From the IMG/VR virus record IMGVR_UViG_3300029867_000012: DNA of 46,841 nt. One strand, given 5' to 3'. The notes beneath the pieces were generated by a model. It did not search any database. It was not told where the DNA came from and saw only the letters and a program-made list of their open reading frames with translations. This DNA is from a virus. Each line of letters begins with the position of its first letter. The first letter of the stretch is position 1. Positions 8,397 to 34,200 of the stretch are shown here, piece by piece. Made by a program: the position numbers and the translations under genes.

Positions 8397-8409
8397 TATT
8401 ACTATCCGC

Positions 8410-9388: not shown

Positions 9389-9396
9389 TTTCGTAC

Positions 9397-9416: not shown

Positions 9417-9443
9417 TATCTCCGCACTTCGTAGTAGTCGCAG

Positions 9444-9797
9444 TTAAAGGACGGTGAAATTATTAATAGCTTCTTGCCAGCTGTCGCCGAATGCATAATT
9501 ATCCGACTCTTGAAGGTCTATAAAATCGGCACCAACACAGCACCACATATTACCATCGGGCATACATTTGAATTCAACTTGTCGGCCTAGCTTTTCGCTG
9601 TAGATCTTGCTGTATATTTTCCCTTCTTTAATCATTTTATCCGCAATCTCCCACCCGTTATTTCTTTCCCCCCATCTAGAGCCAAACGGCATACCGTCCA
9701 TACATTCTCTATTTGTGCTGCCCTGAAGCCTTGAGTTAAACCCACCCCTGACTTCGCCGCTTGCAGTTTCTTTCAAGTAGTCCTGTGCTAATTTCAT
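9444..9797 (-). CDS. Hypothetical protein; C-terminal domain shared with 10845-11087
   Basis: 117 aa. 'DGNMWCCVGADFIDLQESDNYAFGDSWQEAINNF' aligns with 'DGDHWCVGIGIDLQQGLYAFDKTPAGAIALF'. Confidence 0.7.
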   Translation of the reverse strand: MKLAQDYLKETASGEVRGGFNSRLQGSTNRECMDGMPFGSRWGERNNGWEIADKMIKEGKIYSKIYSEKLGRQVEFKCMPDGNMWCCVGADFIDLQESDNYAFGDSWQEAINNFTVL

Positions 9798-9842
9798 AAA
9801 TCACCTTTATTTATAATCCACGTAGCAATCGGTCGCGCTACG

Positions 9843-9865
9843 CTTGCCGCTTATTACGGCGTTAT
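9843..9865 (-). other. Gene-end motif ATAACGCCGTAATAAGCGGCAAG (copy 1 of 3)
   Basis: Identical 23-mer to 11337-11359. Overlaps the TAA stop of 9862-10071. Confidence 0.65.
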
Positions 9866-10071
9866 GTGTATGAGTACCAGTTAGTCTTCATTATTTCTTC
9901 TTTGATCTTGATTTCTCGCTTACAAAACTTAGATGTATTCAGCATTCTTTCTCTCTCTTTTTCTGCTTCGTCTAGCGTGTTTGTTTCAGTATGTATAAAA
10001 TAATGATTAGCATCATTGCTGTAGCAAACCGCGTATCTTTTTTTCTCAAATGATTTTCCATACATAATCAC
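9862..10071 (-). CDS. Hypothetical protein
   Basis: 69 aa. The GTG start overlaps the upstream stop (GTGA); an alternative ATG lies 6 nt downstream. Confidence 0.6.
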   Translation of the reverse strand: MIMYGKSFEKKRYAVCYSNDANHYFIHTETNTLDEAEKERERMLNTSKFCKREIKIKEEIMKTNWYSYT

Positions 10072-10277
10072 GAAAACCCCTTAACCAGCTCAAAAACTTC
10101 ATTTAAACTACGGCAAACAGCCTCTTCTTTCAGTCCCTCAGCTTGATGCTCTGTGCTAGACCAAACCCTAAAAACTTTATTTGTCTCGTCGTAGTCAAAT
10201 ACCCAGCCATTCTCTGCCGAATTTTCCTGCCAAACCTGCGCACGTCCATTGTCAAAATCAAAATTAACAAAACTCAT
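10068..10277 (-). CDS. Hypothetical protein
   Basis: 69 aa with GGGAGGA SD upstream. Confidence 0.65.
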   Translation of the reverse strand: MSFVNFDFDNGRAQVWQENSAENGWVFDYDETNKVFRVWSSTEHQAEGLKEEAVCRSLNEVFELVKGFS

Positions 10278-10373
10278 AAATCCTCCCGTAATTCACACAT
10301 AACAAATTTAGCAATCGGACGGGTCAAGCCCGCGTGTTTCCTGCAATTCCTACCGCCGCCGTTTCTAAAGGGA

Positions 10374-10754
10374 TTAGCTGTATAAATCTCTGTGCAGCGT
10401 TTCTTCTTCATCTGTACAAAACGTACCCTCAAACTCTTGTGGCTCTCCGCAATCACCCTCAAGGTATACAGGGCAATCTAAACCACAGCCACCGTTTAAG
10501 CCCACAACATAACACCCACTCATTCCAACGGGGTAATGTCCATCAATTTGAGCCATTGCATTGCCCATGTTATTCACATCTTCCATTGTTTTAATGGGTT
10601 TACTTACAAAGCTTCCAGCTACTTGCGTTTCGCCAAATCCATCGTAAACTTTTTTACTAGCATCAATTAACTGGCCTTTATTAAAACCGTCTGGATGCTC
10701 AGTTTTTGCAATTTCAGCGGCCCTTTTTACTAATTCAGTATTGCTATTAAACAT
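10374..10754 (-). CDS. Hypothetical Cys-rich protein
   Basis: 126 aa. Contains a 'GGCGLDCPVYLEGDCGEP...FC' cluster. AAAGGA SD upstream. Confidence 0.65.
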   Translation of the reverse strand: MFNSNTELVKRAAEIAKTEHPDGFNKGQLIDASKKVYDGFGETQVAGSFVSKPIKTMEDVNNMGNAMAQIDGHYPVGMSGCYVVGLNGGCGLDCPVYLEGDCGEPQEFEGTFCTDEEETLHRDLYS

Positions 10755-10844
10755 AATAATATCCTTTAAAATAAACAGCTAACAAGCGCATCAACGTGGA
10801 ATTTCATTACGCTGCGCTCCATTCAATCCAGTTATGCACGGGCG

Positions 10845-11087
10845 TTACAACTTAATCTTGCTAAGAGCTTGGTTTGTGCCAGCGAATAATTCAGTCGGTT
10901 TGCAAGTCGCATAGTTTCTAAATTCCTCTTTGAATAATGCTATAGCTCCCGCTGGCGTTTTGTCAAAAGCGTAAAGCCCTTGCTGTAAATCAATGCCAAT
11001 CCCAACACACCAATGATCGCCATCCATCTTTAATTCGGCTTGTATTTTAAAACCGTCGTTTCCAAAATCTATCTCAATGTTGCTCAT
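10845..11087 (-). CDS. Hypothetical protein; domain shared with 9444-9797
   Basis: Start placed at the ATG 8 nt after AAAGG of the leader box. The alternative start is 11093. Confidence 0.6.
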   Translation of the reverse strand: MSNIEIDFGNDGFKIQAELKMDGDHWCVGIGIDLQQGLYAFDKTPAGAIALFKEEFRNYATCKPTELFAGTNQALSKIKL

Positions 11088-11095
11088 TTCCATGA

Positions 11096-11114
11096 CCTTT
11101 AATGTGTTGTTATT
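11096..11114 (-). promoter_or_regulatory. Conserved leader box (copy 4 of 6)
   Basis: Exact 19-mer. Confidence 0.6.
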
Positions 11115-11126
11115 TATAAACTACCA

Positions 11127-11141
11127 CGCTTATTACGGCGT
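11127..11141 (-). other. Gene-end motif core ACGCCGTAATAAGCG (copy 2 of 3)
   Basis: 15-nt core lying 2 nt after the TAA of 11143-11322. Confidence 0.55.
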
Positions 11142-11142
11142 A

Positions 11143-11322
11143 TTATTCTTTGCCGATAACTTCGATCCTATAATCGCTGCCAAGTTTTTTAACTGGTAGC
11201 TTACCGTTATCGGTCAAGCCTTCAGCCATTTTTAAAAGTAGCCTCAACTTTTCTTGAGGTAGCGCCACCACGCATGGCTGACTATCGAGCTCTACCATCA
11301 TGCTTATCAACCCAATTTTCAT
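11143..11322 (-). CDS. Hypothetical protein, 59 aa (below ORF-track cutoff)
   Basis: ATG preceded by GGAG. Fills an otherwise empty 260-bp gap, and its stop is followed by the gene-end motif as for two neighbouring genes. Confidence 0.5.
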   Translation of the reverse strand: MKIGLISMMVELDSQPCVVALPQEKLRLLLKMAEGLTDNGKLPVKKLGSDYRIEVIGKE

Positions 11323-11336
11323 ATTGCTCCGTTTAG

Positions 11337-11359
11337 CTTGCCGCTTATTACGGCGTTAT
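11337..11359 (-). other. Gene-end motif (copy 3 of 3)
   Basis: Identical 23-mer to 9843-9865. Overlaps the TAA of 11356-11553. Confidence 0.65.
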
Positions 11360-11553
11360 AACCCCCCAAAAGCCTCTGCATTATCTTCACCATAAGGAAG
11401 GGGGCAGCCATTTAATATAAACGGCTTAACGCCATTTCCGATGCTCAAAGTAACCCGCTGCGTACTGGTCAAAGCTTTCCACGGTTTGCACTGTCCTGAA
11501 AAAGGGCAGTTATCACAGCAGTCAACAACAATTATTTTCCGTTCTTTATACAT
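11356..11553 (-). CDS. Small Cys-rich protein
   Basis: 65 aa, 'VVDCCDNCPFSGQC...NGCP'. Confidence 0.6.
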   Translation of the reverse strand: MYKERKIIVVDCCDNCPFSGQCKPWKALTSTQRVTLSIGNGVKPFILNGCPLPYGEDNAEAFGGL

Positions 11554-11631
11554 GACTAAATCCTGTTAATATTTATAACAACCAATTCCAAGCGACAGCT
11601 AAAACTGATATTGAATAAAAAGATTATGTGT

Positions 11632-11850
11632 CTAGTTTGCTTGGTCGCCTTCTAGAATTCCAGCGCCGATAGCGCAATCGTGACAATACGGTTTGCCATC
11701 ATCATCGATAATATTATCTTCTTCGAAATTGCCTGTCGGCTCATCACATTTGCAGCAAATTTCAAGAGTTCCAGGGTAATTGTCAGCGTTCCAGTGCCTA
11801 TGCTCTTCTTGGGTCATTGCTTTGCGCTTCCCGTCTGGCCAAGTATTCAT
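11632..11850 (-). CDS. Small zinc-ribbon-like protein
   Basis: 72 aa, 'CCKC...(22)...CHDC'. The leader box lies directly upstream. Confidence 0.65.
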   Translation of the reverse strand: MNTWPDGKRKAMTQEEHRHWNADNYPGTLEICCKCDEPTGNFEEDNIIDDDGKPYCHDCAIGAGILEGDQAN

Positions 11851-11857
11851 TTCATCC

Positions 11858-11876
11858 CCTTTAATGTGTTTTTATA
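11858..11876 (-). promoter_or_regulatory. Conserved leader box (copy 5 of 6, variant)
   Basis: TATAAAAACACATTAAAGG. Overlaps the stop of the upstream gene. Confidence 0.5.
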
Positions 11877-12069
11877 TTTCTATTACAAAATCTTCAAAAT
11901 CGTAACAACTAACATAGGGCGAATTGTCAATCATACCAACAAGCCACCCACAATTTTCACAACTGTACTCTGTATATTGATCAGGGCGCAAGACGGTGGG
12001 GTGGTCGTAGATGTTAACCTTCTTACATCGACACTTAGGACACTTTCCTCTGTTCCTACCTTCATCCAT
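11872..12069 (-). CDS. Small zinc-ribbon protein
   Basis: 65 aa, 'CPKC...(29)...CENC'. Start placed 7 nt after AAAGGA of the leader box. Confidence 0.65.
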   Translation of the reverse strand: MDEGRNRGKCPKCRCKKVNIYDHPTVLRPDQYTEYSCENCGWLVGMIDNSPYVSCYDFEDFVIEI

Positions 12070-12077
12070 TTTCTTAT

Positions 12078-12096
12078 CCTTTAATGTGTTGTTATT
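12078..12096 (-). promoter_or_regulatory. Conserved leader box (copy 6 of 6)
   Basis: Exact 19-mer. Confidence 0.6.
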
Positions 12097-12102
12097 TACC
12101 AA

Positions 12103-12130
12103 ACCATATTGCTGGCGCTAACAATATGGT
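12103..12130 (-). other. Hairpin, near copy of 8410-8437
   Basis: ACCATATTGCT-GGCGCT-AACAATATGGT (one mismatch). It has the same position relative to a leader box as the first copy. Confidence 0.65.
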
Positions 12131-14742: not shown

Positions 14743-14946
14743 ATGAGTGAAGAAAGAGCGTTTTTGACGGCAAAGCAGGCTGCAATTTACCTGGGTTACT
14801 CTCCAGGGACACTAAGAATAGGCAGGTCTACTGGAGTTCTTGCAGGTAGAGACGCACCAAAGTACTCAAAGCTAGGCAAGAGCAAAACATCACCAGTGCG
14901 ATACGAAAAAGAAGCGCTTGACAGGTGGATAAAGGAAGCTGAATAG
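14743..14946 (+). CDS. Small helix-turn-helix DNA-binding protein (AlpA/excisionase-type HTH)
   Basis: 67 aa. 'LTAKQAAIYLGYSPGTLRIGRSTG' has an HTH pattern. First gene of the + early block. No integrase is present in the genome. Confidence 0.55.
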   Translation: MSEERAFLTAKQAAIYLGYSPGTLRIGRSTGVLAGRDAPKYSKLGKSKTSPVRYEKEALDRWIKEAE

Positions 14947-14960: not shown

Positions 14961-15872
14961 ATGGCAGCTTTACCTTATATGCAGCTATATGTGGCCGATT
15001 ACATCGCTGATACGTTCCATTTAACGACGGAGGAGAACGGAGCTTACTTGCTGCTAATGATGAATTATTGGCAAACAGGCAAACCGATTCCTAGGAAGCG
15101 TTTAGCTGGCGTTGCACGCTTGTCTAACGAACGTTGGACGGACGTTGAGGAAGTGTTGAGTGAATTTTTCAATGTGACTGAAACACACTGGCAACATGAC
15201 CGAATTGACCGTGATCTTGAGTTCGTTTTAAGCAAATCTATTAGTTCTTCAAAAGGTGGAAAAGCGTCAGCAGCGGCCAGAAAGCGTAAAAAAGAACAGG
15301 AATCCAACGAAAAACCAACGAACGTTAAACAGACGTTGGGCGAACGTTTAGCTAGTGTTGCAACGGAAAAGGAACGAGACTCTAACCATAAAGATAAAGA
15401 TAAAGATAAAGATAAAGATAAAGATAAAGATAAAGATAAAGATAAAGATAAAGATACAAAAGCATTGTCGAGCAAGCCCGACATACCGGTTTCTGATGAT
15501 GTTCAGGAAATATTTAATCATTGGGTTTACAGAATGGGCAAAACCGATCAAACAAAACTCACTAAAAAACGAAAATCTAAAATCATTGACAGACTCAAAG
15601 ATGGCTACACGGTTGATTATATTAAATCGGCTATCGATGGTTGCGCTAAATCGCCGCATCATATGGGCCAAAATGACCAGGGAACGGTGTATGACGATAT
15701 TGAGCTAATTTGCCGAGAGAGCACGAAAATGGAAAATTTCGCGGACAACATAGCAAAAATAACCCCAGCGGATCCCAGACAACCGGAAACCATTGCCCAG
15801 TTTCAGCAACGATCAATGCGGGCAGCCCAGGACGTTATTGACTCAGGATTTTTAGACGACCTACCGGATTAA
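14961..15872 (+). CDS. Replication initiator-type protein: DUF1376 (YdaU-like) N-domain, (Lys-Asp)11 linker, phage conserved C-terminal domain
   Basis: 'LPYMQLYVADYIADTFHLTTEENGAYLLLMMNYW' matches the DUF1376 signature. 'FNHWVYRMGK...RLKDGYTVDYIKSAIDG' resembles the Phg_2220_C-type domain. Confidence 0.7.
   Translation: MAALPYMQLYVADYIADTFHLTTEENGAYLLLMMNYWQTGKPIPRKRLAGVARLSNERWTDVEEVLSEFFNVTETHWQHDRIDRDLEFVLSKSISSSKGGKASAAARKRKKEQESNEKPTNVKQTLGERLASVATEKERDSNHKDKDKDKDKDKDKDKDKDKDKDTKALSSKPDIPVSDDVQEIFNHWVYRMGKTDQTKLTKKRKSKIIDRLKDGYTVDYIKSAIDGCAKSPHHMGQNDQGTVYDDIELICRESTKMENFADNIAKITPADPRQPETIAQFQQRSMRAAQDVIDSGFLDDLPD
15390..15455. repeat. (AAAGAT)11 perfect hexanucleotide microsatellite, in frame (KD x11)
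   Basis: Counted directly as 11 uninterrupted copies. Confidence 0.95.
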
Positions 15873-18828: not shown

Positions 18829-19140
18829 ATGGATATTAACGAACTAACATTAGGTCAAATAAAAGAAATTCAAAATATGGCGTATCAGATTCCTGAAGAT
18901 CACAAGGCGCATCTCGAATATCGTCAATATATTGGCGAACGCCCAACTATTTACGCGATGAACTATATTTATACGGGTGATTGTGTAGCGATTGTAGGTG
19001 ATTCTATTGTTTTTGAAAACGCAATGATTGTGTATAACACCGGTGACCACAAAACAGTTGATTGGTCCGATGCGGAGCAGATGCCCGGAAAATGGAGCGT
19101 GGCAATGCAATCAATTGAAAGCCACGGTATTTTCAAGTAA
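18829..19140 (+). CDS. Hypothetical protein
   Basis: 103 aa. AAGGA SD is preceded by AACAATT AACAATT. Confidence 0.7.
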   Translation: MDINELTLGQIKEIQNMAYQIPEDHKAHLEYRQYIGERPTIYAMNYIYTGDCVAIVGDSIVFENAMIVYNTGDHKTVDWSDAEQMPGKWSVAMQSIESHGIFK

Positions 19141-19164
19141 ACGAAGACTAAAGGGGGTCCAGCT

Positions 19165-19386
19165 GTGATGAAACGTAGCAAATTGGCACGGTCTTGGTCT
19201 AGGTCTAGTTCTGGGTCTTGGTCTTGGTCCAGATCTGGGTCTAGGTCTTGGTCCAGATCTGGGTCTAGGTCTTGGTCCAGGTCTGGGTCTGGGTCCAGAT
19301 CTGGGTCTTGGTCTCGGTCCAGGTCTGGGTCTGGGTCCAGGTCTGGGTCTGGGTCCAGGTCTGGGAGCGGTAAAGATGATGCGTAG
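19165..19386 (+). CDS. X-Ser dipeptide-repeat protein 1 (coding strand uncertain)
   Basis: AAGGGGG lies 7 nt before the GTG-ATG. A basic leader is followed by about 29 alternating (W/R/G/S)-Ser units. Co-oriented with flanking genes. Confidence 0.45.
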   Translation: MMKRSKLARSWSRSSSGSWSWSRSGSRSWSRSGSRSWSRSGSGSRSGSWSRSRSGSGSRSGSGSRSGSGKDDA

Positions 19387-19573
19387 GAATAAATTAAAAA
19401 GGTCCGGTTCTAGTTCTGGTTCTAGAACTAGGCAAAGGTCTAGTTCTGGGTCTAGTTCTGGGTCTTGGTCTTGGTCTTGGTCTTGGTCCAGATCTGGGTC
19501 AAGATCTGGGCCAAGTTCTAGAACTAGAAACAAGTCCAGATCTGGGTCCAGGTTTGTGTCTGGTAGCGGGTCT
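19190..19573. repeat. Two blocks of imperfect GGTCTN hexanucleotide repeats (19190-19365, 19401-19573)
   Basis: Read directly. Higher-order 18- and 24-nt units are present, and several frames on both strands are open through the blocks. Confidence 0.95.
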
Positions 19574-19591
19574 AATAATGCGTGGGAATAA
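19376..19591 (+). CDS. X-Ser dipeptide-repeat protein 2 (coding strand uncertain)
   Basis: GGGAG lies 8 nt before the ATG. The leader MMRRNKLKR is homologous to that of ORF1, and the start overlaps the ORF1 stop. Confidence 0.45.
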   Translation: MMRRNKLKRSGSSSGSRTRQRSSSGSSSGSWSWSWSWSRSGSRSGPSSRTRNKSRSGSRFVSGSGSNNAWE

Positions 19592-19594
19592 CAA

Positions 19595-19771
19595 ATGAAC
19601 TTAATGTGTAAGATTTTCGGCCACAAAAATAAATTGCTTTTTGACATGCCTACCGCATGCGTGAGGTGTGGTCAAGAGAGACCGGCAGTAAAACTAAAAC
19701 ACATTCCCCCGATGCCAAAAGTTAAGCAGCTTAAAAATGGCGATCGATGTGGTAAAATAAGATTCGATTAA
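19595..19771 (+). CDS. Small Cys-containing protein, 58 aa (below cutoff)
   Basis: The N-terminal MNLMCKIFGHK motif is reminiscent of DUF1660-type small prophage proteins, and CVRC is present. The SD is weak. Confidence 0.4.
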   Translation: MNLMCKIFGHKNKLLFDMPTACVRCGQERPAVKLKHIPPMPKVKQLKNGDRCGKIRFD

Positions 19772-19787: not shown

Positions 19788-20129
19788 GTGGACAAATACA
19801 GACAACACTGTCACAATAAACAAATGACTATCGAATATAAAAAATTAACAGTTAGGCGCCGTGAAATACTCGGCTTAGCTTGCGAGTTAACAAAAGAGCG
19901 GCATTACAACACTATTAAGAGAAGCGACTTGGCCGAGCTTGGCAAAACATCCACTGGAAATGTTAGCAGAATAATGGGCGGCATGGATGAATTTAAAAAC
20001 CATCTTATTCAGTATGCTGTTAAACACGATCACCACAGCGTTATAGCTCAAGCCATTTCAGAAAATCACCCGTTAATTCAGGGTTTTTCTAATTCGAAAA
20101 AAAAGCGGCATTTAGTAGCCGCTATTTGA
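19788..20129 (+). CDS. Small HTH regulator (TetR-like N-terminal helix-turn-helix), tentative
   Basis: 'RREILGLACELTKERHYNTIKRSDLAELGKTSTGNVSRIMGG' fits the TetR-type HTH spacing. Start is GTG 19788 or ATG 19824. Confidence 0.4.
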   Translation: MDKYRQHCHNKQMTIEYKKLTVRRREILGLACELTKERHYNTIKRSDLAELGKTSTGNVSRIMGGMDEFKNHLIQYAVKHDHHSVIAQAISENHPLIQGFSNSKKKRHLVAAI

Positions 20130-20142: not shown

Positions 20143-20373
20143 TCATTTATTTTTAATAGTTATTGTTGATATTGAGTTAATTAAGATGGGTCTAATCTCC
20201 TCCTCAATTGCCCATCTTTCGCGGCAAAGACCGCCGTTTATAACTCCGCATGTTATAATATATAAGTCTTCAGATTCCTGGAAAATATAGGTAAATGTGT
20301 GTTTGTAATAGTATGAAAAGCACATCGTTTTGCCAGCGTGCTCTTCTAAAAATTCTTTTATATCGATATTCAC
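20143..20373 (-). CDS. Hypothetical protein
   Basis: 76 aa. Overlaps the upstream gene by 4 nt. Confidence 0.65.
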   Translation of the reverse strand: MNIDIKEFLEEHAGKTMCFSYYYKHTFTYIFQESEDLYIITCGVINGGLCRERWAIEEEIRPILINSISTITIKNK

Positions 20374-20555
20374 TTTAAGACCCCTATTTCTTTTATCACC
20401 GCTTCTTTGTGTTCTGGGCAGTATTGTGATGACCCATTATTTAAGTACAGCCAGCCAGCCGTTATCAATGCCCCCTGAACCCAGTATTTTAAATCAGCCT
20501 CTAGCTCTTCTGAACATCCGGCAGCATCGCAACTTATAATAGTTTTTATAGTCAT
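20370..20555 (-). CDS. Hypothetical small Cys/His protein
   Basis: 61 aa, 'CDAAGC...CPEH'. Confidence 0.6.
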   Translation of the reverse strand: MTIKTIISCDAAGCSEELEADLKYWVQGALITAGWLYLNNGSSQYCPEHKEAVIKEIGVLK

Positions 20556-20574
20556 AATTTATTCCTTCCGGTTT

Positions 20575-20763
20575 TTATAAAATCCCTTCTAGGACGCTCT
20601 CAGCGCCTTCGTATCGTCTGCAAAACTTGGGGTTATGATAAGTTCCGCTTTCCTGGCGTAAGAAGCCATCAGGGATATGAGAGAATTTATTTGTCGATAT
20701 ATACTCAACTCTGAACACTCTATTATTTATTATTACTAAATCACCTAATTTGAAATAATCCAC
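20575..20763 (-). CDS. Hypothetical protein
   Basis: 62 aa, co-oriented with its neighbours. Confidence 0.55.
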   Translation of the reverse strand: MDYFKLGDLVIINNRVFRVEYISTNKFSHIPDGFLRQESGTYHNPKFCRRYEGAESVLEGIL

Positions 20764-20782
20764 AGTAAAGCACTCTAAAAAA

Positions 20783-20953
20783 TCACAGTATTTTAACGTT
20801 AGGAGTTTTTAATAACTCAGCCACCCGCTTGAACTCCTCAGGATTGGACTTATGGATCCAGTGTTTGCGTGGGACCAGCCCAGCCGCACGCTTTTTGGCG
20901 TCGGCCTTAGCGGATCGTTTAGCGTCTGCGGCTCTTTTTTCGTGTATTAACAT
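20783..20953 (-). CDS. Small basic protein, 56 aa (below cutoff)
   Basis: AAAGGAAA SD lies 4 nt before the ATG. It replaces implausible + strand ORFs in a 330-bp gap. Confidence 0.55.
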   Translation of the reverse strand: MLIHEKRAADAKRSAKADAKKRAAGLVPRKHWIHKSNPEEFKRVAELLKTPNVKIL

Positions 20954-20994
20954 AGGTTTCCTTTTTCGATTGAGCGCCCAAACAGTGGGGCATT

Positions 20995-21011
20995 GCGGGG
21001 ATCACCCCCGC
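20995..21011 (-). other. GC-rich hairpin GCGGGG-N5-CCCCGC between two - genes
   Basis: Read directly. There is no U-tract, so this is a possible RNA stabiliser or weak terminator. Confidence 0.4.
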
Positions 21012-21095
21012 ACGTTAATTAGCTAAATTGACGCTTGTGTAGAACGATTGATTTTTCCGCGTATCTCACTAAAATGGCGGCACGTTCGCGCAGTT

Positions 21096-21476
21096 TCATC
21101 GCCACGCCCTACCGCCAAACGCTCTAACGTACAGGTAAGACCGCCACGCCCGCCACTTGCTCATACCGTCCTCTATGCAGATTTCTCTAAGCATTTTGTC
21201 CGCCACTTTGCGGTATTTTTTAGCAATTGCTCCGCGCTCAAGAAGATCATATAAGGCATCATGCACAAGTGATCCGCGCATAAAATTATCGGTGTCAATG
21301 CCACCCGTGGCCCCATCCCATTCGTAACCTACCGGGATTGACAGCACCCCAAGCCTATGGAGTCGCAAGCCGGTGGATGTTAACAACACATCGTTCTGAG
21401 GGAAAATATCAATCGGTATAGAGTAAGGTTCTATTAACTGATATTCACCATCGGCTGTCTTATATTTAATTTCCAT
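21096..21476 (-). CDS. DUF1353-domain protein
   Basis: 'PVGYEWDGATGGIDTDNFMRGSLVHDALY' matches the DUF1353 signature. Start is at 21476 (alternative 21494). Confidence 0.6.
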   Translation of the reverse strand: MEIKYKTADGEYQLIEPYSIPIDIFPQNDVLLTSTGLRLHRLGVLSIPVGYEWDGATGGIDTDNFMRGSLVHDALYDLLERGAIAKKYRKVADKMLREICIEDGMSKWRAWRSYLYVRAFGGRAWR

Positions 21477-21726
21477 AAAATTCACCCGTAGCATTTTTTA
21501 AAATAAGCGCCAATCTTGGCGGGTCTTCTGATTCAGCAACCCACGCGAAGGCACTCTCTAAGTTTTTAATCTCGTAATTCTCGCCCTCATGCTTTAAAAA
21601 TAACGCCACTGGGTCTGCTTTCCGTGAGACTTCCACCCCCATTATTTCGAGGCCGTGACGAGCTGCGGCCCCTTTTTTAGAAAAAGCCATAATCGTTTGC
21701 TGTTTGTAATCAACAAAGAAAAACAT
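21466..21726 (-). CDS. Hypothetical protein
   Basis: 86 aa with TTAAAGGA SD 6 nt upstream. Confidence 0.65.
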   Translation of the reverse strand: MFFFVDYKQQTIMAFSKKGAAARHGLEIMGVEVSRKADPVALFLKHEGENYEIKNLESAFAWVAESEDPPRLALILKNATGEFYGN

Positions 21727-21728
21727 TG

Positions 21729-22070
21729 TTATTCCTTTAAGTCATCAATGTGGATTGCGTATCTAAAAAGCAACGGCATTTTATTGCTGTCCGCGTGCTT
21801 GACCACATAATATTCCTCAAACATTCCTATGAATTCCAGGGAGAAGTCTGCAAATACAGGTGTTTTATCGTCGTCAACGTAAACAATATCTCCCTTGACT
21901 AATTTGCGGGGCGTTCTCTCTACATGCCTCCATTCACAAACCCTTCCGTCAGCCGCTTCGCACACATGTCCCCCAGTTTTTAAGGGGCCAACATAAAGCC
22001 ACCTCAAATTTGTATCCCATGTATCATTCTCTAGATCCTTAACTCTAACGGGTGTTCCTGGTTTAATCAT
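21729..22070 (-). CDS. Hypothetical protein
   Basis: 113 aa. The ATG overlaps the stop of the upstream micro-ORF. Confidence 0.65.
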   Translation of the reverse strand: MIKPGTPVRVKDLENDTWDTNLRWLYVGPLKTGGHVCEAADGRVCEWRHVERTPRKLVKGDIVYVDDDKTPVFADFSLEFIGMFEEYYVVKHADSNKMPLLFRYAIHIDDLKE

Positions 22071-22192
22071 GATTTTCCCCTTGGTAGTGATGCGATTGGA
22101 ATCAGTGTGGCCCCACGTCGCGGCTTAGGCCTGTATTTGCTTTTGGCTATTGTTACTAATACTAGTCCTACAGACAGTGCTATTATTAACAT
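22067..22192 (-). CDS. Small single-pass membrane peptide, 41 aa (below cutoff)
   Basis: MLIIALSVGLVLVTIAKSKYRPK.... AGGAG upstream and the stop overlaps the next ATG (ATGA). Confidence 0.45.
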   Translation of the reverse strand: MLIIALSVGLVLVTIAKSKYRPKPRRGATLIPIASLPRGKS

Positions 22193-22319
22193 GATAAATC
22201 GTACTCCTTAAGAAGATCTTCAAATTGATCGAGGGGCAATATTTCTTGTAATCGGTCGTAACTGTTACACCATTCATCCATTGGGGAATTGTGGTCTAAC
22301 AAAATGGCGCGTAGGACTA

Positions 22320-22559
22320 TTACTGATTGCATATTTCTTCCCCCACTTCCGCCAAAAATTTATCCAGTTCAATGGCGTCAATGCGGCATTCAAGCTCTTC
22401 GAGTAATACGCCGAAGTTAGAAAATGGTGGGTCAAGAAGCAGATAATCTTTTAAGTACTCATTACTCATTGCTTCGGCTTGTTTGACCGAAATTGAGTAC
22501 CAGCCTTGGGCGGTACACGCTCTTAATTCAATATTTGGTAGTGGTCCGATGGTGGGCAT
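22320..22559 (-). CDS. Hypothetical acidic protein
   Basis: 79 aa, co-oriented with its neighbours. Confidence 0.6.
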   Translation of the reverse strand: MPTIGPLPNIELRACTAQGWYSISVKQAEAMSNEYLKDYLLLDPPFSNFGVLLEELECRIDAIELDKFLAEVGEEICNQ

Positions 22560-22574
22560 AATGAATCCTTTTGA

Positions 22575-22853
22575 TTAATTAAAAGTGCTGCCGTCTTCGA
22601 ATGTGAACGTACCGTAGCAGTCCGGATTTTTGCTCTTATGAGTTGCGGCCCCTGCGTCACTCATAAGCATCATGGCTCTTAAAGCTCCGCCGATAGTGAT
22701 GTGATCCCTGATTATCCTGTCCGCTATTGTTTCATTGTCATCCAATCGGATATTGATGATGTTTATTATTTGCGCTCGATTAGACGAGGGGCGCATATCA
22801 ACAAGGTAGTCTTGTAGCTTTTTGCGTGTATTAAGGGGTAGTTTTATAGACAT
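22575..22853 (-). CDS. Hypothetical protein (cassette A)
   Basis: 92 aa. Preceded by the conserved 5'UTR and promoter cassette. Confidence 0.7.
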   Translation of the reverse strand: MSIKLPLNTRKKLQDYLVDMRPSSNRAQIINIINIRLDDNETIADRIIRDHITIGGALRAMMLMSDAGAATHKSKNPDCYGTFTFEDGSTFN

Positions 22854-22903
22854 GATTTAATCCTGTTTGATTTGGCCTGGGCTAATTCCCACACTGTATA
22901 AAC

Positions 22904-22932
22904 ATTGTATGTCATGAGTTCTCACATATCAA
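22904..22932 (-). promoter_or_regulatory. Sigma70-type promoter, cassette A: TTGATA-17-TACAAT
   Basis: The 17-nt spacer contains the conserved TGTGAGAACTCAT, as in cassettes B and C. Confidence 0.65.
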
Positions 22933-22935
22933 GCT

Positions 22936-23061
22936 TTACATTATGAGATAAAGAACCCCCACGCCGATTAACAATAGGCAAAAAAGAGTTGCCGGTATTA
23001 TTAACTGTACTGCTATGACCAGTCGGGTCTTGATTTCTTTACCTGTTAGAAATATTTTCAT
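22936..23061 (-). CDS. Small single-pass membrane peptide, 41 aa (below cutoff)
   Basis: MKIFLTGKEIKTRLVIAVQLIIPATLFCLLLIGVGVLYLIM. AGGGA SD lies 7 nt upstream. Confidence 0.45.
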   Translation of the reverse strand: MKIFLTGKEIKTRLVIAVQLIIPATLFCLLLIGVGVLYLIM

Positions 23062-23080
23062 GATTTTTTCCCTAGTTATT

Positions 23081-23356
23081 TTAATCTGTGTAGTTGCAAA
23101 ATTTAATAGCGTCTTGCTTAGAAATACATAGGCTGCTAGATTTACTAGTAATAAGTTTAAATATTTCGACTTTAAACCCCACCGATGTAGTAAATTTTTC
23201 CACTTCTAGCTGGGCGCCATTTTTAACAGCCTCGGAAAGGGCCGCATCAAAGCACTTTTCACTAGCTGCATCATCAGCGGCTTTTTTTGGGTGGTCGCCG
23301 TAGAAGTAATCGCCCATCGCGTCCTCTGCGTCTTGCATGCTTTCTGTTGTAATCAT
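23081..23356 (-). CDS. Hypothetical acidic protein
   Basis: 91 aa (about 16 D/E against 10 K/R). It shares the conserved 5'UTR but not the promoter part. Confidence 0.7.
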   Translation of the reverse strand: MITTESMQDAEDAMGDYFYGDHPKKAADDAASEKCFDAALSEAVKNGAQLEVEKFTTSVGFKVEIFKLITSKSSSLCISKQDAIKFCNYTD

Positions 23357-23376
23357 TTTTGAAATCCTTTTGATTT

Positions 23377-23397
23377 GGCCCAGACTTAACCTGGGCC
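23377..23397 (-). other. Perfect 7-bp hairpin GGCCCAG-N7-CTGGGCC in the 5'UTR of 23081-23356 / 3' of 23407-23619
   Basis: Read directly. It occupies the position of the TGGG-ATTAG-CCCA stem-loop seen in the other cassettes. Confidence 0.5.
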
Positions 23398-23406
23398 GGT
23401 TAGTGA

Positions 23407-23619
23407 TTATTTTGAATTAGAAAGCGTTACAGAACCCCAATAAAGACATTCAGATTCTGGGGATAATTCAAAAGCGCGGTTTGTGATCAAATCACAATCA
23501 GTGCCTTCATGATAGATATTCATTGCGTCTGATTCAGATTTTGCCCGCTCACTGATTGCAATGGCTACCGACTCGGAAAGCTGTAATGATTCCATTTGCT
23601 GTTCGTTAAAGTAGTTCAT
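23407..23619 (-). CDS. Hypothetical strongly acidic protein (cassette B)
   Basis: 70 aa (about 12 D/E against 4 K/R). Has its own promoter cassette. Confidence 0.7.
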   Translation of the reverse strand: MNYFNEQQMESLQLSESVAIAISERAKSESDAMNIYHEGTDCDLITNRAFELSPESECLYWGSVTLSNSK

Positions 23620-23668
23620 TTTGAAATCCTTTTGATTTGGCTTGGGCTAATCCCCAAACTGTGAAACT

Positions 23669-23697
23669 ATTGTATGCTATGAGTTCTCACACGTCAA
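23669..23697 (-). promoter_or_regulatory. Sigma70-type promoter, cassette B: TTGACG-17-TACAAT
   Basis: Read directly. The spacer is TGTGAGAACTCATAGCA. Confidence 0.7.
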
Positions 23698-23709
23698 TAG
23701 ATTCATAAA

Positions 23710-24060
23710 TTAACCTGTGAAATAATTTTTAACTTCGTCGCTGACTGGTAGTGCCAAAGCAAGCTTTTTAAGCTGCACCTGAGCGCGGTTATAATCCTGG
23801 GCTTTTCCGTTGGCCTCCGATAGCGGCACAACTTCCCCGAAGATATTTTCTTTCCATCCTTGACTTGCGGCTTTCATCCCTTCAGAGCTAAGCCAATTAT
23901 CTGCCAGAATAAAATCAAAGTGCTCTGTTAATGCACCGGCATCATTGGGCAGTTGTTGGCCAATCGCGACAAGCAATTTATCTGTTGGTTTATCGCCAAT
24001 GAGTCCGGCAATATAGTTAAAAGTACTGTTGGTTTGTAAAGTGTATTTTGGCTCGTTCAT
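23710..24060 (-). CDS. Hypothetical protein (cassette C)
   Basis: Start set at the ATG after the conserved AAAAGGATTTCAAA leader (116 aa). The track start at 24132 would translate the promoter. Confidence 0.7.
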   Translation of the reverse strand: MNEPKYTLQTNSTFNYIAGLIGDKPTDKLLVAIGQQLPNDAGALTEHFDFILADNWLSSEGMKAASQGWKENIFGEVVPLSEANGKAQDYNRAQVQLKKLALALPVSDEVKNYFTG

Positions 24061-24110
24061 TTTGAAATCCTTTTTGATTCGATTTGAGCTAATTCCCAAA
24101 CCGTGAAACC

Positions 24111-24139
24111 ATTGTATTATATGAGTTCTCACACGTCAA
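24111..24139 (-). promoter_or_regulatory. Sigma70-type promoter, cassette C: TTGACG-17-TACAAT
   Basis: Read directly. The spacer is TGTGAGAACTCATATAA. Confidence 0.7.
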
Positions 24140-24157
24140 TAGGTATTTAGGCTTATT

Positions 24158-24186
24158 TTGACCAAGGGGGCTGGATCGGGTAGCAT
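24158..24186 (+). promoter_or_regulatory. Possible promoter of the late block: TTGACC-17-TAGCAT
   Basis: The -10 box ends only 6 nt before ATG 24193, which would give a very short or absent leader. Confidence 0.3.
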
Positions 24187-24192
24187 AGAGAA

Positions 24193-25416
24193 ATGGAAAT
24201 AAAAGAGCAAAACCCGGCAGATTTAACGCATTTAGAGAATAATTCTAGGACTCATAGTGATCAACAAATAACCGAGATTGCCGCCAGTATCACAGAATTT
24301 GGGTTTACAAATCCGGTTCTTGTGGACGCTAATAATATTATCATAGCGGGTCATGGCAGAACTTCAGCCGCCATTGAATTGGGGTTTGATAAAATCCCCA
24401 CGATTGAGTTAAAGGGTCTTACGGACACACAGATAAAGGCCTACGTGATTGCAGACAATCAATTAGCGCTAAATGCTGGATGGGATTTCGATCAGCTTGA
24501 AATAGAAATTAGTGAGCTCAGGGAGTTGGATTTTGATATTGATATTTTGGGGTTTGATGATGAATTTTTAAATGGCTTGGCGGATGAATCTGCGGAGGGT
24601 TTGACTGACGAGGACGCAGTTCCAGAAGCGCCAGCAACGCCGGTTACAGTGTTGGGCGATATATGGCAGCTCGGAAACCATCGATTAATGTGCGGGGATA
24701 GTACGAGCGCTGACGCTGTAGAAAAGTTAATGGATGGGCAAAAGGCCGATATTGCTTTTACTTCCCCGCCCTATAACGTAGGCAAAACACCGAACGGCAA
24801 TGATAAAAAATACTTAAACGATAACGACAGCAAATCACAGGACGAGTACAGGTGTTTTTTAAATGACTTCACAAATAACGCTCTATTGTTTAGTGACTAT
24901 GTTTTTTCTAATATACAGTCATTAGCAGGCAATAAGATTGCTCTTATTAGTCATGTTTATGATATGCGAGAAAAATATGCTGATGTAATGATTTGGGATA
25001 AAGGTTCGGCAGAACCGGCTATGGCAAGAAAGGTGCTAAATAGCAGATTTGAATACATTTACATATTTTCAAATGAAGCAAAAAGAAGTATTGGCCGAAG
25101 AGACTTTAGAGGCACACTGTCCAACATCGTAGAAATAAAAAGCAGGCAAGATAAAGATTATGCGAAAATTCACAAAGCTACTTTTCCGGTAGAGTTCGCG
25201 TCTTTTTTCGTCTCTAATTTTTCAGAATCATCCGTATTGGATCAGTTCGGTGGCACAGGAACTACACTGATATCCTGCGAGAAAGAAAACAGACGCTCCT
25301 TTGTAATGGAGTTAGAGGAAAAATACTGTGACATTATTATAATAAGGTGGCAGGATTTCACAGGAAAGCAGGCTATACATATTGAAAGCGGCAAAACATA
25401 CAATGAAATGGTTTAG
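24193..25416 (+). CDS. ParB-like nuclease domain fused to N6/N4 DNA methyltransferase
   Basis: 'NSRTHSDQQITEIAASITEFGFTNPVLV...IIAGHGR' is a ParB-N-type region. 'FTSPPYNV' and 'DQFGGTGTTLISC' are MTase motifs IV and I. Confidence 0.85.
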   Translation: MEIKEQNPADLTHLENNSRTHSDQQITEIAASITEFGFTNPVLVDANNIIIAGHGRTSAAIELGFDKIPTIELKGLTDTQIKAYVIADNQLALNAGWDFDQLEIEISELRELDFDIDILGFDDEFLNGLADESAEGLTDEDAVPEAPATPVTVLGDIWQLGNHRLMCGDSTSADAVEKLMDGQKADIAFTSPPYNVGKTPNGNDKKYLNDNDSKSQDEYRCFLNDFTNNALLFSDYVFSNIQSLAGNKIALISHVYDMREKYADVMIWDKGSAEPAMARKVLNSRFEYIYIFSNEAKRSIGRRDFRGTLSNIVEIKSRQDKDYAKIHKATFPVEFASFFVSNFSESSVLDQFGGTGTTLISCEKENRRSFVMELEEKYCDIIIIRWQDFTGKQAIHIESGKTYNEMV

Positions 25417-27922: not shown

Positions 27923-28114
27923 ATGAGCACAAAAGCAACTTCGCGCGATGCAATAGCAGTAGTTCTAACCACCGCCTCCGCACTTTTCCCGCGCAACGGC
28001 TCGAATAAAGTCATCTATGAGGAGATCACACCAGGCGGCTCAACGTATGACACACCGGGGGATTTAACGGGCCTTCGAGCTGATCTGGTTGACGCTGTGG
28101 ACAAACTGGGTTAA
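27923..28114 (+). CDS. Hypothetical protein
   Basis: 63 aa, tightly packed with its neighbours. Confidence 0.6.
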   Translation: MSTKATSRDAIAVVLTTASALFPRNGSNKVIYEEITPGGSTYDTPGDLTGLRADLVDAVDKLG

Positions 28115-29319
28115 TGGCGTCTCCTACGGTAGTTGCGGAAACTCCCAGCAATGACGACAACGCGACAACATCATTTACAATATTAACCGGCTCTCCCCTT
28201 GAAGGTGAGGGCGTTGTTATCTTCCTGTCTAGGGATAACGGGGGAACCGGTACGGTTTCGTGGTCAGACGGCTATACCGAGTTATACGATTTAAACGACG
28301 ACGACGGTTTTTCCAGCGGCGCAGCGGCCTATAAACAGGCGGGAGCGTCTGAGCCGTCGTCTATCACGGTAACTGCTACAGTCTCCGGGGAATTCACGGC
28401 TCGCGCGTACAGAATATCGGGACACCTAAGTTTTGCTACACAGGCCCCCGATGTAGGAACAGTCACTAACGGTGGCAACACTGTTACTCATGACCCACCG
28501 AGCGTTAATGTAACCGGCGGCGCGGCGGATATTTTATCGTTTGCTGTATTGCCGTTTGACACTCACAATTCAGACGTTAATACATTTCCTTCGAGTTATA
28601 TTAACACTGGTGTTACGAGGTCTGGCGTCTCTGGCTCTCAATGCTCCCTAGCATTTTGCACTAGGGCGATAACGTCTGTATCCAGCGAAGATCCCGGCGC
28701 TTTTACGTTATCAGCTACGAGACGAGGCATTCCTACCACTGTATTAGTGCAGGAAGACGCGGCTAGCGGTAGCGCAATCACTGCAGACGTTGACGAGGCT
28801 GGCGATACCACAAGCGCCACACTTGAGGTTACTGTTAGTGTTTCCGCAAGCGTAGCAGAAGCGGGGGACACCACAAGCGCCGCACTGAATAACATTGTTA
28901 GTATTAACGCTAACGTGGCCGAAGCAGGAGACGCCACAACCGCGGCACTGGCCACCATCGTTAGCATTACCGCCAATCAAACAGAGGCCGGCGATACAAC
29001 AACAGCTACTCTAAATAACATTGTTAGCATTAGCGCTAACGTAGCCGAGGCTGGCGATACCACGGCGGCCAGTCTCACAGTTGGCGGCCTATCTCAAATA
29101 ACTGCCAATGTCAACGAGGCGGGCGACACCACAAGCGCCACGCTGAATAACATTGTTAGCATCACGGCAAGCGTGGCTGAGGCTGGCGACAGTACAGCGG
29201 CGGCGATATCAACAGGCGCCGCATTAATCGCGGCTACTGCTGAAATTGACATTTTCCCAGCTTATGGGGGACAATCGAATATAATCCCCGCTTATACTGC
29301 CATGGTTGACATATTATGA
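28114..29319 (+). CDS. Repeat-containing putative virion surface protein
   Basis: 401 aa. An N-terminal globular domain of about 225 aa is followed by about seven 21-aa repeats (AEAGDTTSAxLNNIVSIxANV). Confidence 0.7.
   Translation: MASPTVVAETPSNDDNATTSFTILTGSPLEGEGVVIFLSRDNGGTGTVSWSDGYTELYDLNDDDGFSSGAAAYKQAGASEPSSITVTATVSGEFTARAYRISGHLSFATQAPDVGTVTNGGNTVTHDPPSVNVTGGAADILSFAVLPFDTHNSDVNTFPSSYINTGVTRSGVSGSQCSLAFCTRAITSVSSEDPGAFTLSATRRGIPTTVLVQEDAASGSAITADVDEAGDTTSATLEVTVSVSASVAEAGDTTSAALNNIVSINANVAEAGDATTAALATIVSITANQTEAGDTTTATLNNIVSISANVAEAGDTTAASLTVGGLSQITANVNEAGDTTSATLNNIVSITASVAEAGDSTAAAISTGAALIAATAEIDIFPAYGGQSNIIPAYTAMVDIL
28792..29220 (+). repeat. About 7 tandem 63-bp (21-aa) in-frame repeats, diverged at synonymous sites
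   Basis: Read from the translation and the DNA. One unit is 23 aa. Confidence 0.85.
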
Positions 29320-33238: not shown

Positions 33239-33712
33239 ATGTCTACCATCGGTAAGAGATCGATTTATGTTGGCCCTGCGGACGGCTCGAATAACAAGCC
33301 CTTGAATGTCGAGGGGCTTTTGACTGTCTCCACCGCAAAACCCGGAACTATTTTGGAAGCCGTTCCGGGCGGCCTTCGGGTTAGCCAAAAAAATTCCACC
33401 GTTTTTTTCAGAGAATTAATTGTCGCGGATAAAGATCAACAAAGAGCAAAATCTGTTGATGATGTTTGGGTGCAAAACGAAACTATTGTCGGAATAAAGG
33501 CGCGATCTGGCGAGTTTTTAAATGTGCTTGTTGCCGCCGGCAATGACATAACTGAGCATGGGACACCCTTGTCAGTTAACGGTGCGGGGATTCTTCAGAT
33601 ATCAGATATCCCCGTGACAGTTGGGGCCACACTGGATTGGGCTATGTGTTATAGCGATGAAATCATAAATGTAACTGGCACCGATGCGCTTGTTCGCGTA
33701 AGGGTTGCTTAG
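33239..33712 (+). CDS. Head-associated protein, paralogue A (decoration/scaffold candidate)
   Basis: 157 aa, roughly 60-65% identical by eye to the next gene. AAGGAGG SD upstream. Confidence 0.7.
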   Translation: MSTIGKRSIYVGPADGSNNKPLNVEGLLTVSTAKPGTILEAVPGGLRVSQKNSTVFFRELIVADKDQQRAKSVDDVWVQNETIVGIKARSGEFLNVLVAAGNDITEHGTPLSVNGAGILQISDIPVTVGATLDWAMCYSDEIINVTGTDALVRVRVA

Positions 33713-33726: not shown

Positions 33727-34200
33727 ATGTCTATCATAGGAAAGCGGCTAATTTATATTGGTCCTGCGGACGGGTCTAATTGCAGGCCCTTGAATGTCGA
33801 GGGTATTATTATCACTGCTTCAGTCTTGCCGGGAACGGTGCTGGAAGGCAGCGGAACAAGTTTGGCAACCAACGTTAACCCCGCTACAACATTCGGACAG
33901 GAATTAATTGTTGCGGATAAAGATCAACAGAGGTCAAAATCTGTTGACACGGTTTGGACGCAAAACGAAAACATAGTTGCTATTAAAGCGCGTTCTGGGG
34001 AATTTATGAACGTACTTGTTGCTGATGGCAATGACATAACCGCACAAGGTGTTCCGCTATCCTTAAACGGCGCGGGTCTGCTTAAAATAGCCGTTGTTCC
34101 GGCAACCGTGGGGGCTACTAGTGAGCAAGTTCTTTGCTATAGCGACGAAATTATTAATGTATCCGGCGCTGACGCGCTTGTTCGAATTAGAGTGGCATAA
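33727..34200 (+). CDS. Head-associated protein, paralogue B
   Basis: 157 aa, collinear with paralogue A. Confidence 0.7.
   Translation: MSIIGKRLIYIGPADGSNCRPLNVEGIIITASVLPGTVLEGSGTSLATNVNPATTFGQELIVADKDQQRSKSVDTVWTQNENIVAIKARSGEFMNVLVADGNDITAQGVPLSLNGAGLLKIAVVPATVGATSEQVLCYSDEIINVSGADALVRIRVA

Follow-up and report, generated by a model that had tools for sequence, protein, structure and literature searches.

Putative modular expression cassettes with an operator-like palindrome in the orphan-gene block of a marine myovirus

Introduction

The viral DNA considered here, a stretch of 46,841 nucleotides (IMG/VR virus record IMGVR_UViG_3300029867_000012; hereafter the window), carries on its minus strand, between positions 22854 and 24142, a series of near-identical promoter and 5′ untranslated region (5′UTR) cassettes placed in front of small genes, and the question raised by this locus is why the same regulatory sequence recurs before genes that belong to no recognizable family. 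The units are probably modular early-expression cassettes, each combining a sigma-70 promoter, a 12-bp dyad operator embedded in the 17-bp spacer, a hairpin and a Shine–Dalgarno leader, and recombining as modules. An original prediction, made without database searches, had described the repeated units, and missed three of their features: the cassettes border exchanged modules, the operator resembles the binding site of the host nucleoid-occlusion factor SlmA, and there is a fifth, leader-only copy. The coincidence between the operator and the SlmA site is the most interesting and most testable outcome of the analysis.

Cassette architecture

Three minus-strand cassettes of about 85 nt, each with a −35 box, a 17-nt spacer and the −10 box TACAAT, had been predicted, and all three were found in place. 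In cassette P1 (24061–24142), the −35 box TTGACG (24139–24134) is followed by the operator GTGAGAACTCAT (24132–24121), the −10 box TACAAT (24116–24111), the hairpin CGGTTTGGG/AATTAG/CTCAAATCG (24103–24080) and the leader AATCAAAAAGGATTTCAAA (24079–24061). The same elements recur in cassette P2 (23620–23700; −35 box 23697–23692, operator 23690–23679, −10 box 23674–23669, hairpin 23661–23638, leader 23637–23620) and in cassette P3 (22854–22935; −35 box TTGATA 22932–22927, operator 22925–22914, −10 box 22909–22904, hairpin 22896–22873, leader 22872–22854), and a repeat finder groups the three as one 82-nt family (D6) with 74–83% identity. A promoter scan returned TTGACG-17-TACAAT at 24139–24111 and 23697–23669 and TTGATA-17-TACAAT at 22932–22904, each scoring 10/12 and ranking second to fourth among the 31 sigma-70-like sites of the 15–26 kb region, which bears out the description of the units as repeated sigma-70 promoter/5′UTR cassettes. 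A strong sigma-70-like promoter with a 17-nt spacer is also present in seven further distinct cassettes of related genomes.

Two additional units, on the same strand, lack the promoter. Unit 4 (23357–23397) had been described correctly as the same leader (23376–23357) preceded by the hairpin GGCCCAG-GTTAAGT-CTGGGCC (23397–23377), without a promoter; it also has no U-tract. The leader-only copy, TTAATCAAAAGGATTCATT-ATG (22560–22578), is the fifth unit and precedes the 79-amino-acid (79-aa) gene F. The leader CCAAATCAAAAGGATTTCAAA is repeated exactly at 23640–23620 and 23378–23358 (zero chance matches expected), and AATCAAAAGGAT stands before genes A, B, C, E and F, with or without a hairpin; in every cassette copy AAAGGA is followed, after 7–8 nt, by ATG.

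Each cassette had been thought to drive one small protein, a view that did not hold. The terminator scan returned no convincing terminator between the units, so that P2 would serve three genes (encoding products of 70 aa, of 91 aa via unit 4 and a 41-aa transmembrane peptide) and P3 more than ten, down to a terminator-like minus-strand hairpin at 20123–20104, where the P3 run ends.

When viral, metagenome and genome collections were scanned, the exact promoter-plus-operator pattern was found in this phage lineage only. Two further loci (L003 and L016), considered as possible additional cassettes, were discarded as chance hits of the pattern inside genes.

Module exchange among relatives

The relatives recovered from these pattern scans comprise a near-identical fragment (L001), two 46-kb genomes that are about 95% identical to the window (L002 and L019), a 3.4-kb contig mis-binned into a Phycisphaerales metagenome-assembled genome (L004) and several further fragments. 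More distant relatives (L021, L023 and L025) were found via capsid/portal clusters and the small terminase.

A comparison of cassette content among relatives had been proposed as a check, and it revealed genes exchanged exactly at cassette borders. Aligned by BLAST, the window and L002 lose homology at 24066, the end of the P1 leader, and regain it at 23697, the −35 box of P2, and the slot of gene A is filled in L002 by a basic 154-aa gene unrelated to it. A fourth cassette, P4, follows the DUF1353 gene of L002 together with a 77-aa gene; this module is intact in L002 and L019 and deleted in the window, where the 3′ end of the 77-aa open reading frame (ORF) remains at about 21020–21072 of the minus strand. 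A unit-4-type hairpin precedes the leader of gene F in L002. In L004, the homologue of gene A has an N-terminal extension and lies behind the third cassette (P3′), unit 4 and gene C are absent as a joint indel, and a new 86-aa gene follows P1′. Cassette P1 of L002 is itself chimeric, with the flank of the window P1 and a P2-like 3′ half, nearly identical genomes differ in the P3 variant that they carry, and L021 and L023 have different first genes behind the same leader. As judged by this sequence comparison, the cassettes form the borders of exchanged gene modules, and apparently they are also the crossover sites of these modules.

The spacer palindrome as a putative operator

Ten distinct cassettes, drawn from three genomes, could be aligned gap-free over the stretch that runs from the −35 box to the hairpin. 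In this alignment pairwise identity is 97% for the 12-mer GTGAGnACTCAT, in which 11 of 12 positions are invariant; the −35 box reaches 84%, the −10 box 90% and the spacer bases on either side 64% and 41%. The conservation of the spacer element was reached by only 562 of 100,000 shuffles. The 12-nt block that is invariant across these relatives, GTGAG-N-ACTCAT, takes the form GTGAG(A/T)ACTCAT in the cassettes. Its sole variable base is central and makes the palindrome perfect in two cassettes, P4 of L002 and P2′ of L004 (TGAGTACTCA). In the 46.8-kb window TGTGAGAACTCAT occurs exactly three times, always within a cassette, and the core palindrome TGAGNNCTCA is likewise confined to the cassettes.

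The distant relatives carry other palindromes at this place. L021 and L023 have a single first promoter, TTGAC-GTTAGATCTAAT-ATGGAT-TACTAT, and a second site, GTTAGAACTTAC, in the 5′UTR, while L025 shares the hairpin and leader of the window but has GTTAGCACTAAC and GTAAGATCTAAC in its two spacers. The cross-lineage pattern, G-T-N-A-G-N-N-C-T-N-A-Y, always overlaps the core promoter, with a register that shifts by 2 nt. Because the dyad symmetry is kept while the sequence changes, the comparison supports the spacer element as a shared operator for a dimeric DNA-binding protein, in agreement with the earlier suggestion that the conserved spacer looked like one, and the overlap of the palindrome with the core promoter predicts repression by occlusion of RNA polymerase. 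The repeat itself (4 + 4 bp with a 2-nt gap) is too weak to fold, and no promoter with an embedded RTNAGNNCTNAY was found in about 266 kb of unrelated loci.

Candidate binding proteins

Searching the literature for the palindrome led to the binding site of SlmA, a TetR-family nucleoid-occlusion factor of gamma-proteobacteria. The SlmA-binding site (SBS), 5′-GTGAGTACTCAC-3′, is a 12-bp palindrome in which the bases at positions 1, 2, 4 and 5 are strongly preferred, position 3 accepts any purine and position 6 is flexible (PMC3020112, PMC3573117). Natural E. coli sites are looser, the cores of SBS12 and SBS17, taken from primer sequences, being GTGAACGCTAAC and GTGACCATTTAC, and SlmA from V. cholerae, which recognizes the consensus of E. 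coli, functions as a transcription factor too.

Counted base by base against the GTGAGTACTCAC consensus, the window cassettes match at 10/12 positions and the T-variants of the relatives at 11/12. The left half, GTGAG(A/T), holds all four key SlmA bases in every copy, and the right half, which reads ATGAGT on the complementary strand, holds three of the four, with A replacing G1 in the window lineage; in L025 both palindromes have all four key bases in both halves. The positions that are invariant across lineages (G1, T2, A4, G5, C8, T9 and A11) are those that SlmA needs, and the variable ones (3/10 and 6/7) are those that it tolerates. The location of the palindrome is also that of the SBS in the synthetic Psbs::lacZ promoter, which lies between the −35 and −10 boxes and is repressed by SlmA (PMC3020112, PMC3573117). 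The element described here differs in being a natural one carried on phage DNA, whereas Tonthat et al. reported no chromosomal SBS in a promoter region of E. coli (PMC3020112). By sequence, SlmA is the best single candidate binder, and that the palindromes are genuine SlmA sites wiring the early promoters to host nucleoid occlusion is a tentative proposal, somewhat less likely than not. The argument rests on the position and conservation of the sites and not on their counts.

Several observations weigh against this proposal. A GC content of 42–47% and the relatives of the large terminase (TerL) and major capsid protein (MCP) are no more than compatible with a SlmA-bearing gamma-proteobacterial host. 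Position 12 is T and not C in most copies, including all ten cassettes of the window lineage, and the number of near-SBS 12-mers genome-wide is not significant by itself. No report linking phage DNA to SlmA sites was returned by the literature search.

Binding by SlmA would couple phage early transcription, and possibly a division arrest, to the nucleoid occlusion of the host. SlmA would repress the orphan-gene block, and on replication the three to four sites per genome copy would become a dispersed multicopy SBS array, which could titrate SlmA and so de-repress the promoters, and could also activate SlmA cell-wide and block Z-ring assembly; a multicopy plasmid with two SBSs (pUC-2xSBS) causes a lethal, SlmA-dependent division block via dispersed SlmA–SBS complexes. 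Such an array would provide the phage with a protein-free means of sensing a host cell-cycle factor and of arresting host division.

A second possibility, somewhat unlikely on the present evidence, is that a phage-encoded repressor binds the operator, exerting early-to-middle shut-off or immunity-like control, and that the likeness to the SlmA site has arisen by chance. Where a phage promoter holds an operator in its spacer, the regulator is usually a phage protein. The operator differs by lineage at the symmetric positions 3 and 10 (GTGAG..CTCAT versus GTTAG..CTAAC), a pattern to be expected under repressor/operator co-evolution and one that also counts against SlmA, and the T at position 12 in 10/10 window-lineage cassettes points the same way. 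Position 3, however, varies within a single genome (GTTAG and GTAAG in L025), which argues for a tolerant binder rather than a switched specificity, and the palindrome is absent from every other intergenic region, including those upstream of the candidate regulators. These candidates are the one encoded HTH_17 protein (14743–14946), a helix–turn–helix (HTH)-like 113-aa ORF (19788–20129) and gene E. For gene E the best-ranking fold matches are to winged-helix regulators, none of them significant (E ≥ 0.4, TM scores of 0.3–0.4), and its family is also found in phages and bacteria without these cassettes. The 113-aa ORF was rejected as a TetR/SlmA-like repressor: it gave no Pfam, NCBIfam or PDB hit even at permissive thresholds and no BLASTP alignment with an approximate SlmA sequence, and its single-sequence model (pLDDT 49) was unusable. 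Its only phage homologue, gp63 of Edwardsiella phage PEi21, is encoded between helicase and primase genes, in a replication module, and PEi21 has no SBS-like promoter site. A tblastn search of the window with approximate queries detected no phage-encoded SlmA or TetR homologue.

Two further palindromes of this kind were noted. The only other match in the window to the cross-lineage pattern, GTTAGCGCTAAT (29029–40, minus strand), is located inside a 401-aa ORF (28114–29319), among 63-nt (21-aa) tandem repeats (28777–29201), and may be due to chance or represent an extra SBS-like site. A high-GC viral contig of an unrelated phage (L017, IMGVR_UViG_3300022689_000337) contains an intergenic promoter, TTGACC-T-GTGAGATCTCAC-GGTC-TAGAGT (1080–1108), with a perfect SBS-like palindrome at the same spacer position, a single case.

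Products of the cassette genes

The genes served by the cassettes all lie on the minus strand: gene A (23710–24060; 116 aa, net charge −4), gene B (23407–23619; 70 aa, −8), gene C (23081–23356; 91 aa, −6), gene D (22936–23061; a 41-aa transmembrane peptide, +3, conserved in L002 and L004) and gene E (22575–22853; 92 aa, +1). As anticipated, their products (116, 70, 91, 41 and 92 aa) have no recognizable family in Pfam, PHROGs or NCBIfam. Genes A, B and C are orphan genes (ORFans) confined to this phage lineage: the sole relative of gene A is the one behind a different cassette in L004, gene B is lineage-restricted and gene C has no homologue but itself among 5.8 billion proteins. The acidity attributed to the products was confirmed for the 70-aa and 91-aa proteins and is not a uniform property, given the positive charge of the 92-aa and 41-aa products.

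The view that the cassettes act independently under identical regulation, each for a single small acidic protein with an anti-restriction, anti-defence or host-takeover role, is unlikely to be correct. Small ORFans behind strong promoters adjoining packaging genes would fit it, as would the acidity of genes B, C, F and G (the latter two with net charges of −9 and −7) and the high gene turnover among close relatives, which is typical of accessory counter-defence loci. The lack of terminators between units and the position of P2 and P3 before several genes each argue against independent units, however, and the alternative genes occupying the same slots in relatives are basic (+7 and +8). No similarity to any known anti-defence family was found in Pfam, PHROGs or NCBIfam, and structural support for DNA mimicry was not obtained. 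For the anti-restriction or anti-defence role taken alone, the findings point neither way, and nothing connects the products of genes A, B and C with defence.

Gene E belongs to a six-cluster family of unknown function with a conserved GTFTFEDGS C-terminus, members of which are also found in unrelated phages and in a bacterial-looking contig; outside the lineage, they occur as a lone insert between the structural genes of another phage and in a 73-kb phage. A confident model (pLDDT 89) displays four helices and a β-hairpin, and the notion that gene E encodes a ribbon–helix–helix autorepressor was abandoned in view of this fold and of an N-terminus that is unconserved in the family. In one of these phages (L009, 3870–3925) the homologue belongs to an isolated pair of opposite-strand genes inserted between those for portal and terminase; in its promoter, the palindrome GTTTCTA-TTTT-TAGAAAC stands shortly before a TATACT −10 box. 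In another, unrelated phage (L005, positions 1–6000 of the 73.8-kb ENA JOHN19-1 scaffold_272), a gene E homologue is accompanied by a distinct cassette family with a TTTGACA-17-TACTAT promoter (three copies), the 26-nt perfect palindrome CAATCTAGTAACCAGTTACTAGATTG (seven copies) and the leader AACCAACTAAATTTTAAAGGAAAAAATGATG (at least four copies), which implies that the promoter/palindrome/leader design recurs.

Shared ancestry as an alternative explanation

It might also be supposed that there is no operator, and that the cassettes are recent duplicates whose spacer is conserved through ancestry, gene conversion or promoter strength. The cassettes are clearly paralogous, and strong phage promoters can share sequence outside the hexamers. 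Nonetheless, this explanation is very improbable, since conservation is sharply local, falling from the 12-mer to the adjoining spacer bases, and since the palindromes of the distant relatives differ both in sequence and in their 2-nt register, neither of which is predicted by ancestry or promoter strength.

Hairpin and leader

Every cassette has a GGG/CCC-centred stem of 4–9 bp with the invariant loop AATTAG. The predicted TGGG/CCCA stem-loop is thus present, while the stem is not limited to it and reaches up to 9 bp. The hairpin begins 1–4 nt after the predicted transcription start (1 nt in P1 and 3 nt in P2 and P3) and lies 8–31 nt downstream of the −10 box; a hairpin is predicted for each unit, the whole-segment energies ranging from −10.6 to −17.4 kcal/mol, and the hairpin of unit 4 is stronger than those of the cassettes. 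The register of the stem is specific, with 83% of cells paired versus 50% when it is slid by 1. None of the hairpins has a U-tract or appears in the output of the terminator scan, and the hairpin–leader module is also found promoter-less between co-transcribed genes; for these reasons we infer an mRNA-level role, which may consist of 5′-end protection, processing or insulation of the ribosome site.

That the hairpins instead insulate each gene from upstream transcription, as terminators or attenuators similar to those of the promoter-early stem-loop (PeSL) cassettes of T4-type phages, is the least probable of the explanations, because, even if PeSL stem-loops have been shown to terminate transcription and their polyG/polyC stems resemble the GGG…CCC stems found here, hairpins downstream of their own −10 box would end the transcript of their own cassette, have neither a U-tract nor a hit in the terminator scan and, in the case of unit 4, lie between two co-transcribed genes.

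A second, unrelated leader family, TAAATAACAACACATTAAAGG-N5–10-ATG, precedes six genes of the recombination-side block at 8.1–12.2 kb (8163–12130, minus strand). Two of its copies are preceded by the hairpin CCATATTGC-N8-GCAATATGG (8437–8412 and 12130–12105), and none has a sigma-70 promoter.

Proposed mechanism

Taken together, the data are best accommodated, with reasonable though not high probability, by modular early-expression cassettes. The near-consensus sigma-70 promoters would be read by the host RNA polymerase, with transcription starting about 7 nt after TACAAT, and, as the units are not separated by terminators, the output of P1, P2 and P3 would sum along the block. The hairpin and leader, which would also work promoter-less as an intercistronic unit in unit 4 and in the leader-only copy, most likely protect the 5′ end of the mRNA or insulate the ribosome site, and a dimeric protein bound between the −35 and −10 boxes would shut off all of the promoters jointly. 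The approximately 80 nt of common sequence apparently serve as portable homology for recombination by the phage proteins SSB, YqaJ and ERF or by the host, and the comparison of relatives shows that ORFan genes have been replaced, inserted, deleted and moved as cassette-bounded modules in a PeSL-like manner.

A number of points tell against this scheme. We infer the early timing and the start sites from the anatomy of the promoters, and the relatives are only a handful, all of metagenomic origin. Part of the conservation of the operator could result from gene conversion among the cassettes, which would not explain the variable bases flanking the operator. Covariation in the 5′UTR hairpin is not significant, the observed values being reached by 132–356 of 500 shuffles, and the invariant AATTAG loop suggests recognition of the sequence rather than of the structure alone. 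The position of the hairpins downstream of the −10 box and their lack of a U-tract make a terminator function unlikely, unlike that of PeSLs. Finally, no convincing operator-binding regulator was found among the phage candidates, the 113-aa ORF with its homologue in a replication module included.

Genome context

The window represents a complete phage genome with a unit length of 46,722 bp, its first 119 bases recurring at 46723–46841. These identical 119-bp ends may be a short direct terminal repeat, or else the genome may be circular or circularly permuted, with its two ends overlapping in the assembly. The phage is a 46.7-kb marine myovirus with tail-sheath and baseplate genes, a PBSX-type terminase and lambdoid-type recombination genes. 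The plus strand encodes a ParB–N6/N4 methylase fusion, the small and large terminase subunits, portal, capsid, tail-sheath, baseplate and tape-measure proteins and a DUF1376-type replication block, and the minus strand encodes a recombination block with SSB, a YqaJ exonuclease and an ERF annealase. No integrase was found among the large ORFs of the window, no tRNA or known RNA family was detected by the tRNA scan or Rfam, and no DNA-level similarity was found among 50,697 GenBank phages. Among cultured phages, those closest in single proteins (TerL and MCP) infect Vibrio and Enterobacterales. Vibrio phages 1.210.O and 1.214.O and Edwardsiella phage PEi21 have no more than single genes in common with the window and lack a comparable early block.

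The cassettes are placed at the head of a minus-strand block of small genes (24132–20143) that diverges from the packaging genes. The remainder of the P3 transcription unit (20143–22559) consists of tightly packed small genes, among them that of the DUF1353 protein (21096–21494). On the plus strand, a divergent promoter-like site, TTGACC-17-TAGCAT (24158–24186, region 24133–24192), ends 6 nt before the ATG of the ParB–methylase gene (24193); no Shine–Dalgarno sequence precedes this ATG, so the methylase mRNA may be leaderless. The TTGACC region is kept upstream of P1 in L004, L023 and L025 despite the different genes that follow there. The gene adjoining P1 is itself mosaic: in the window it encodes the ParB_N–N6/N4-methylase fusion (24193–25416), in L002 (351–1930) and L019 the slot holds a 183-aa ParB_N protein and a separate C5 cytosine methylase, and in L004 (1–1940), L021 and L023 the small terminase gene directly adjoins P1.

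Repeats were also observed away from the cassettes. Dense 12-/18-nt tandem repeats (15 overlapping copies) occupy 19111–19647 and give SGSRSW-type repeats in the plus-strand reading, or PRPRPG and DLDP repeats within a 178-aa minus-strand ORF; only about 70% of this region can be aligned with L002, indicating that its length or sequence varies. A (KD)n repeat (AAAGAT, about 13 copies) is found at 15383–15466 inside the DUF1376 replication protein. The major capsid gene is closely preceded by two neighbouring paralogous 157-aa genes (33239–33712 and 33727–34200) that share about 72% DNA identity, and L023 has a single 150-aa copy.

Comparison with known systems

Conserved sequences directly upstream of the start codons of unrelated genes are known from Cluster K mycobacteriophages, in which the start-associated sequences (SAS/ESAS), of unknown function, are likewise asymmetric (Pope et al. 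2011, PMC3203893). About half of them are preceded by an inverted repeat. Their counterpart in the present phage is the hairpin–leader module, as seen in unit 4, the leader-only copy and the second leader family. The two systems differ in sequence and in host group, and three of the copies described here are fused to a promoter; the likeness is one of analogy only.

A closer parallel is offered by the PeSLs, mobile regulatory cassettes of T4-type phages in which the stem-loop, located mostly between the −35 and −10 boxes or over the −10 box, acts as a terminator or attenuator and in which mini-circles arise when neighbouring motifs recombine (Arbiol et al. 2010, PMC2839356; Comeau et al. 2014, PMC4122927). 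Common to both are a sigma-70-like early promoter with a 17-nt spacer and an AT-rich upstream region, a stem-loop or inverted repeat whose stem pairs a G-run with a C-run, and a Shine–Dalgarno sequence and start codon at the 3′ end. Both are concentrated in an ORFan block, and in both the insertions, deletions and replacements between close relatives map to the motifs, with crossovers inside them. In contrast, the phage described here is an unrelated 46.7-kb myovirus with lambdoid-type recombination genes and without the T4 core architecture, its stable stem-loop is located in the 5′UTR, has no U-tract and is probably not a terminator, and the inverted repeat between its −35 and −10 boxes is a short, 12-bp operator-type palindrome too weak to fold. 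The cassettes thus depart from PeSLs on two counts, the position and nature of the stem-loop and the T4-like setting.

Cassettes of this kind are compact, naturally optimized parts, comprising a promoter, an operator, a 5′ hairpin and a ribosome-binding site, and their practical value would also lie in delimiting exchangeable modules in metagenomic phage genomes. Considered alongside the family found in L005, they suggest a general design rule for the accessory regions of phages. They are best filed as PeSL-type mobile regulatory cassettes outside the T4-like phages, with the addition of an embedded operator, and extend the cassette shuffling of orphan early genes, so far described for T4-type phages, to an unrelated small marine myovirus with clean natural recombinants.

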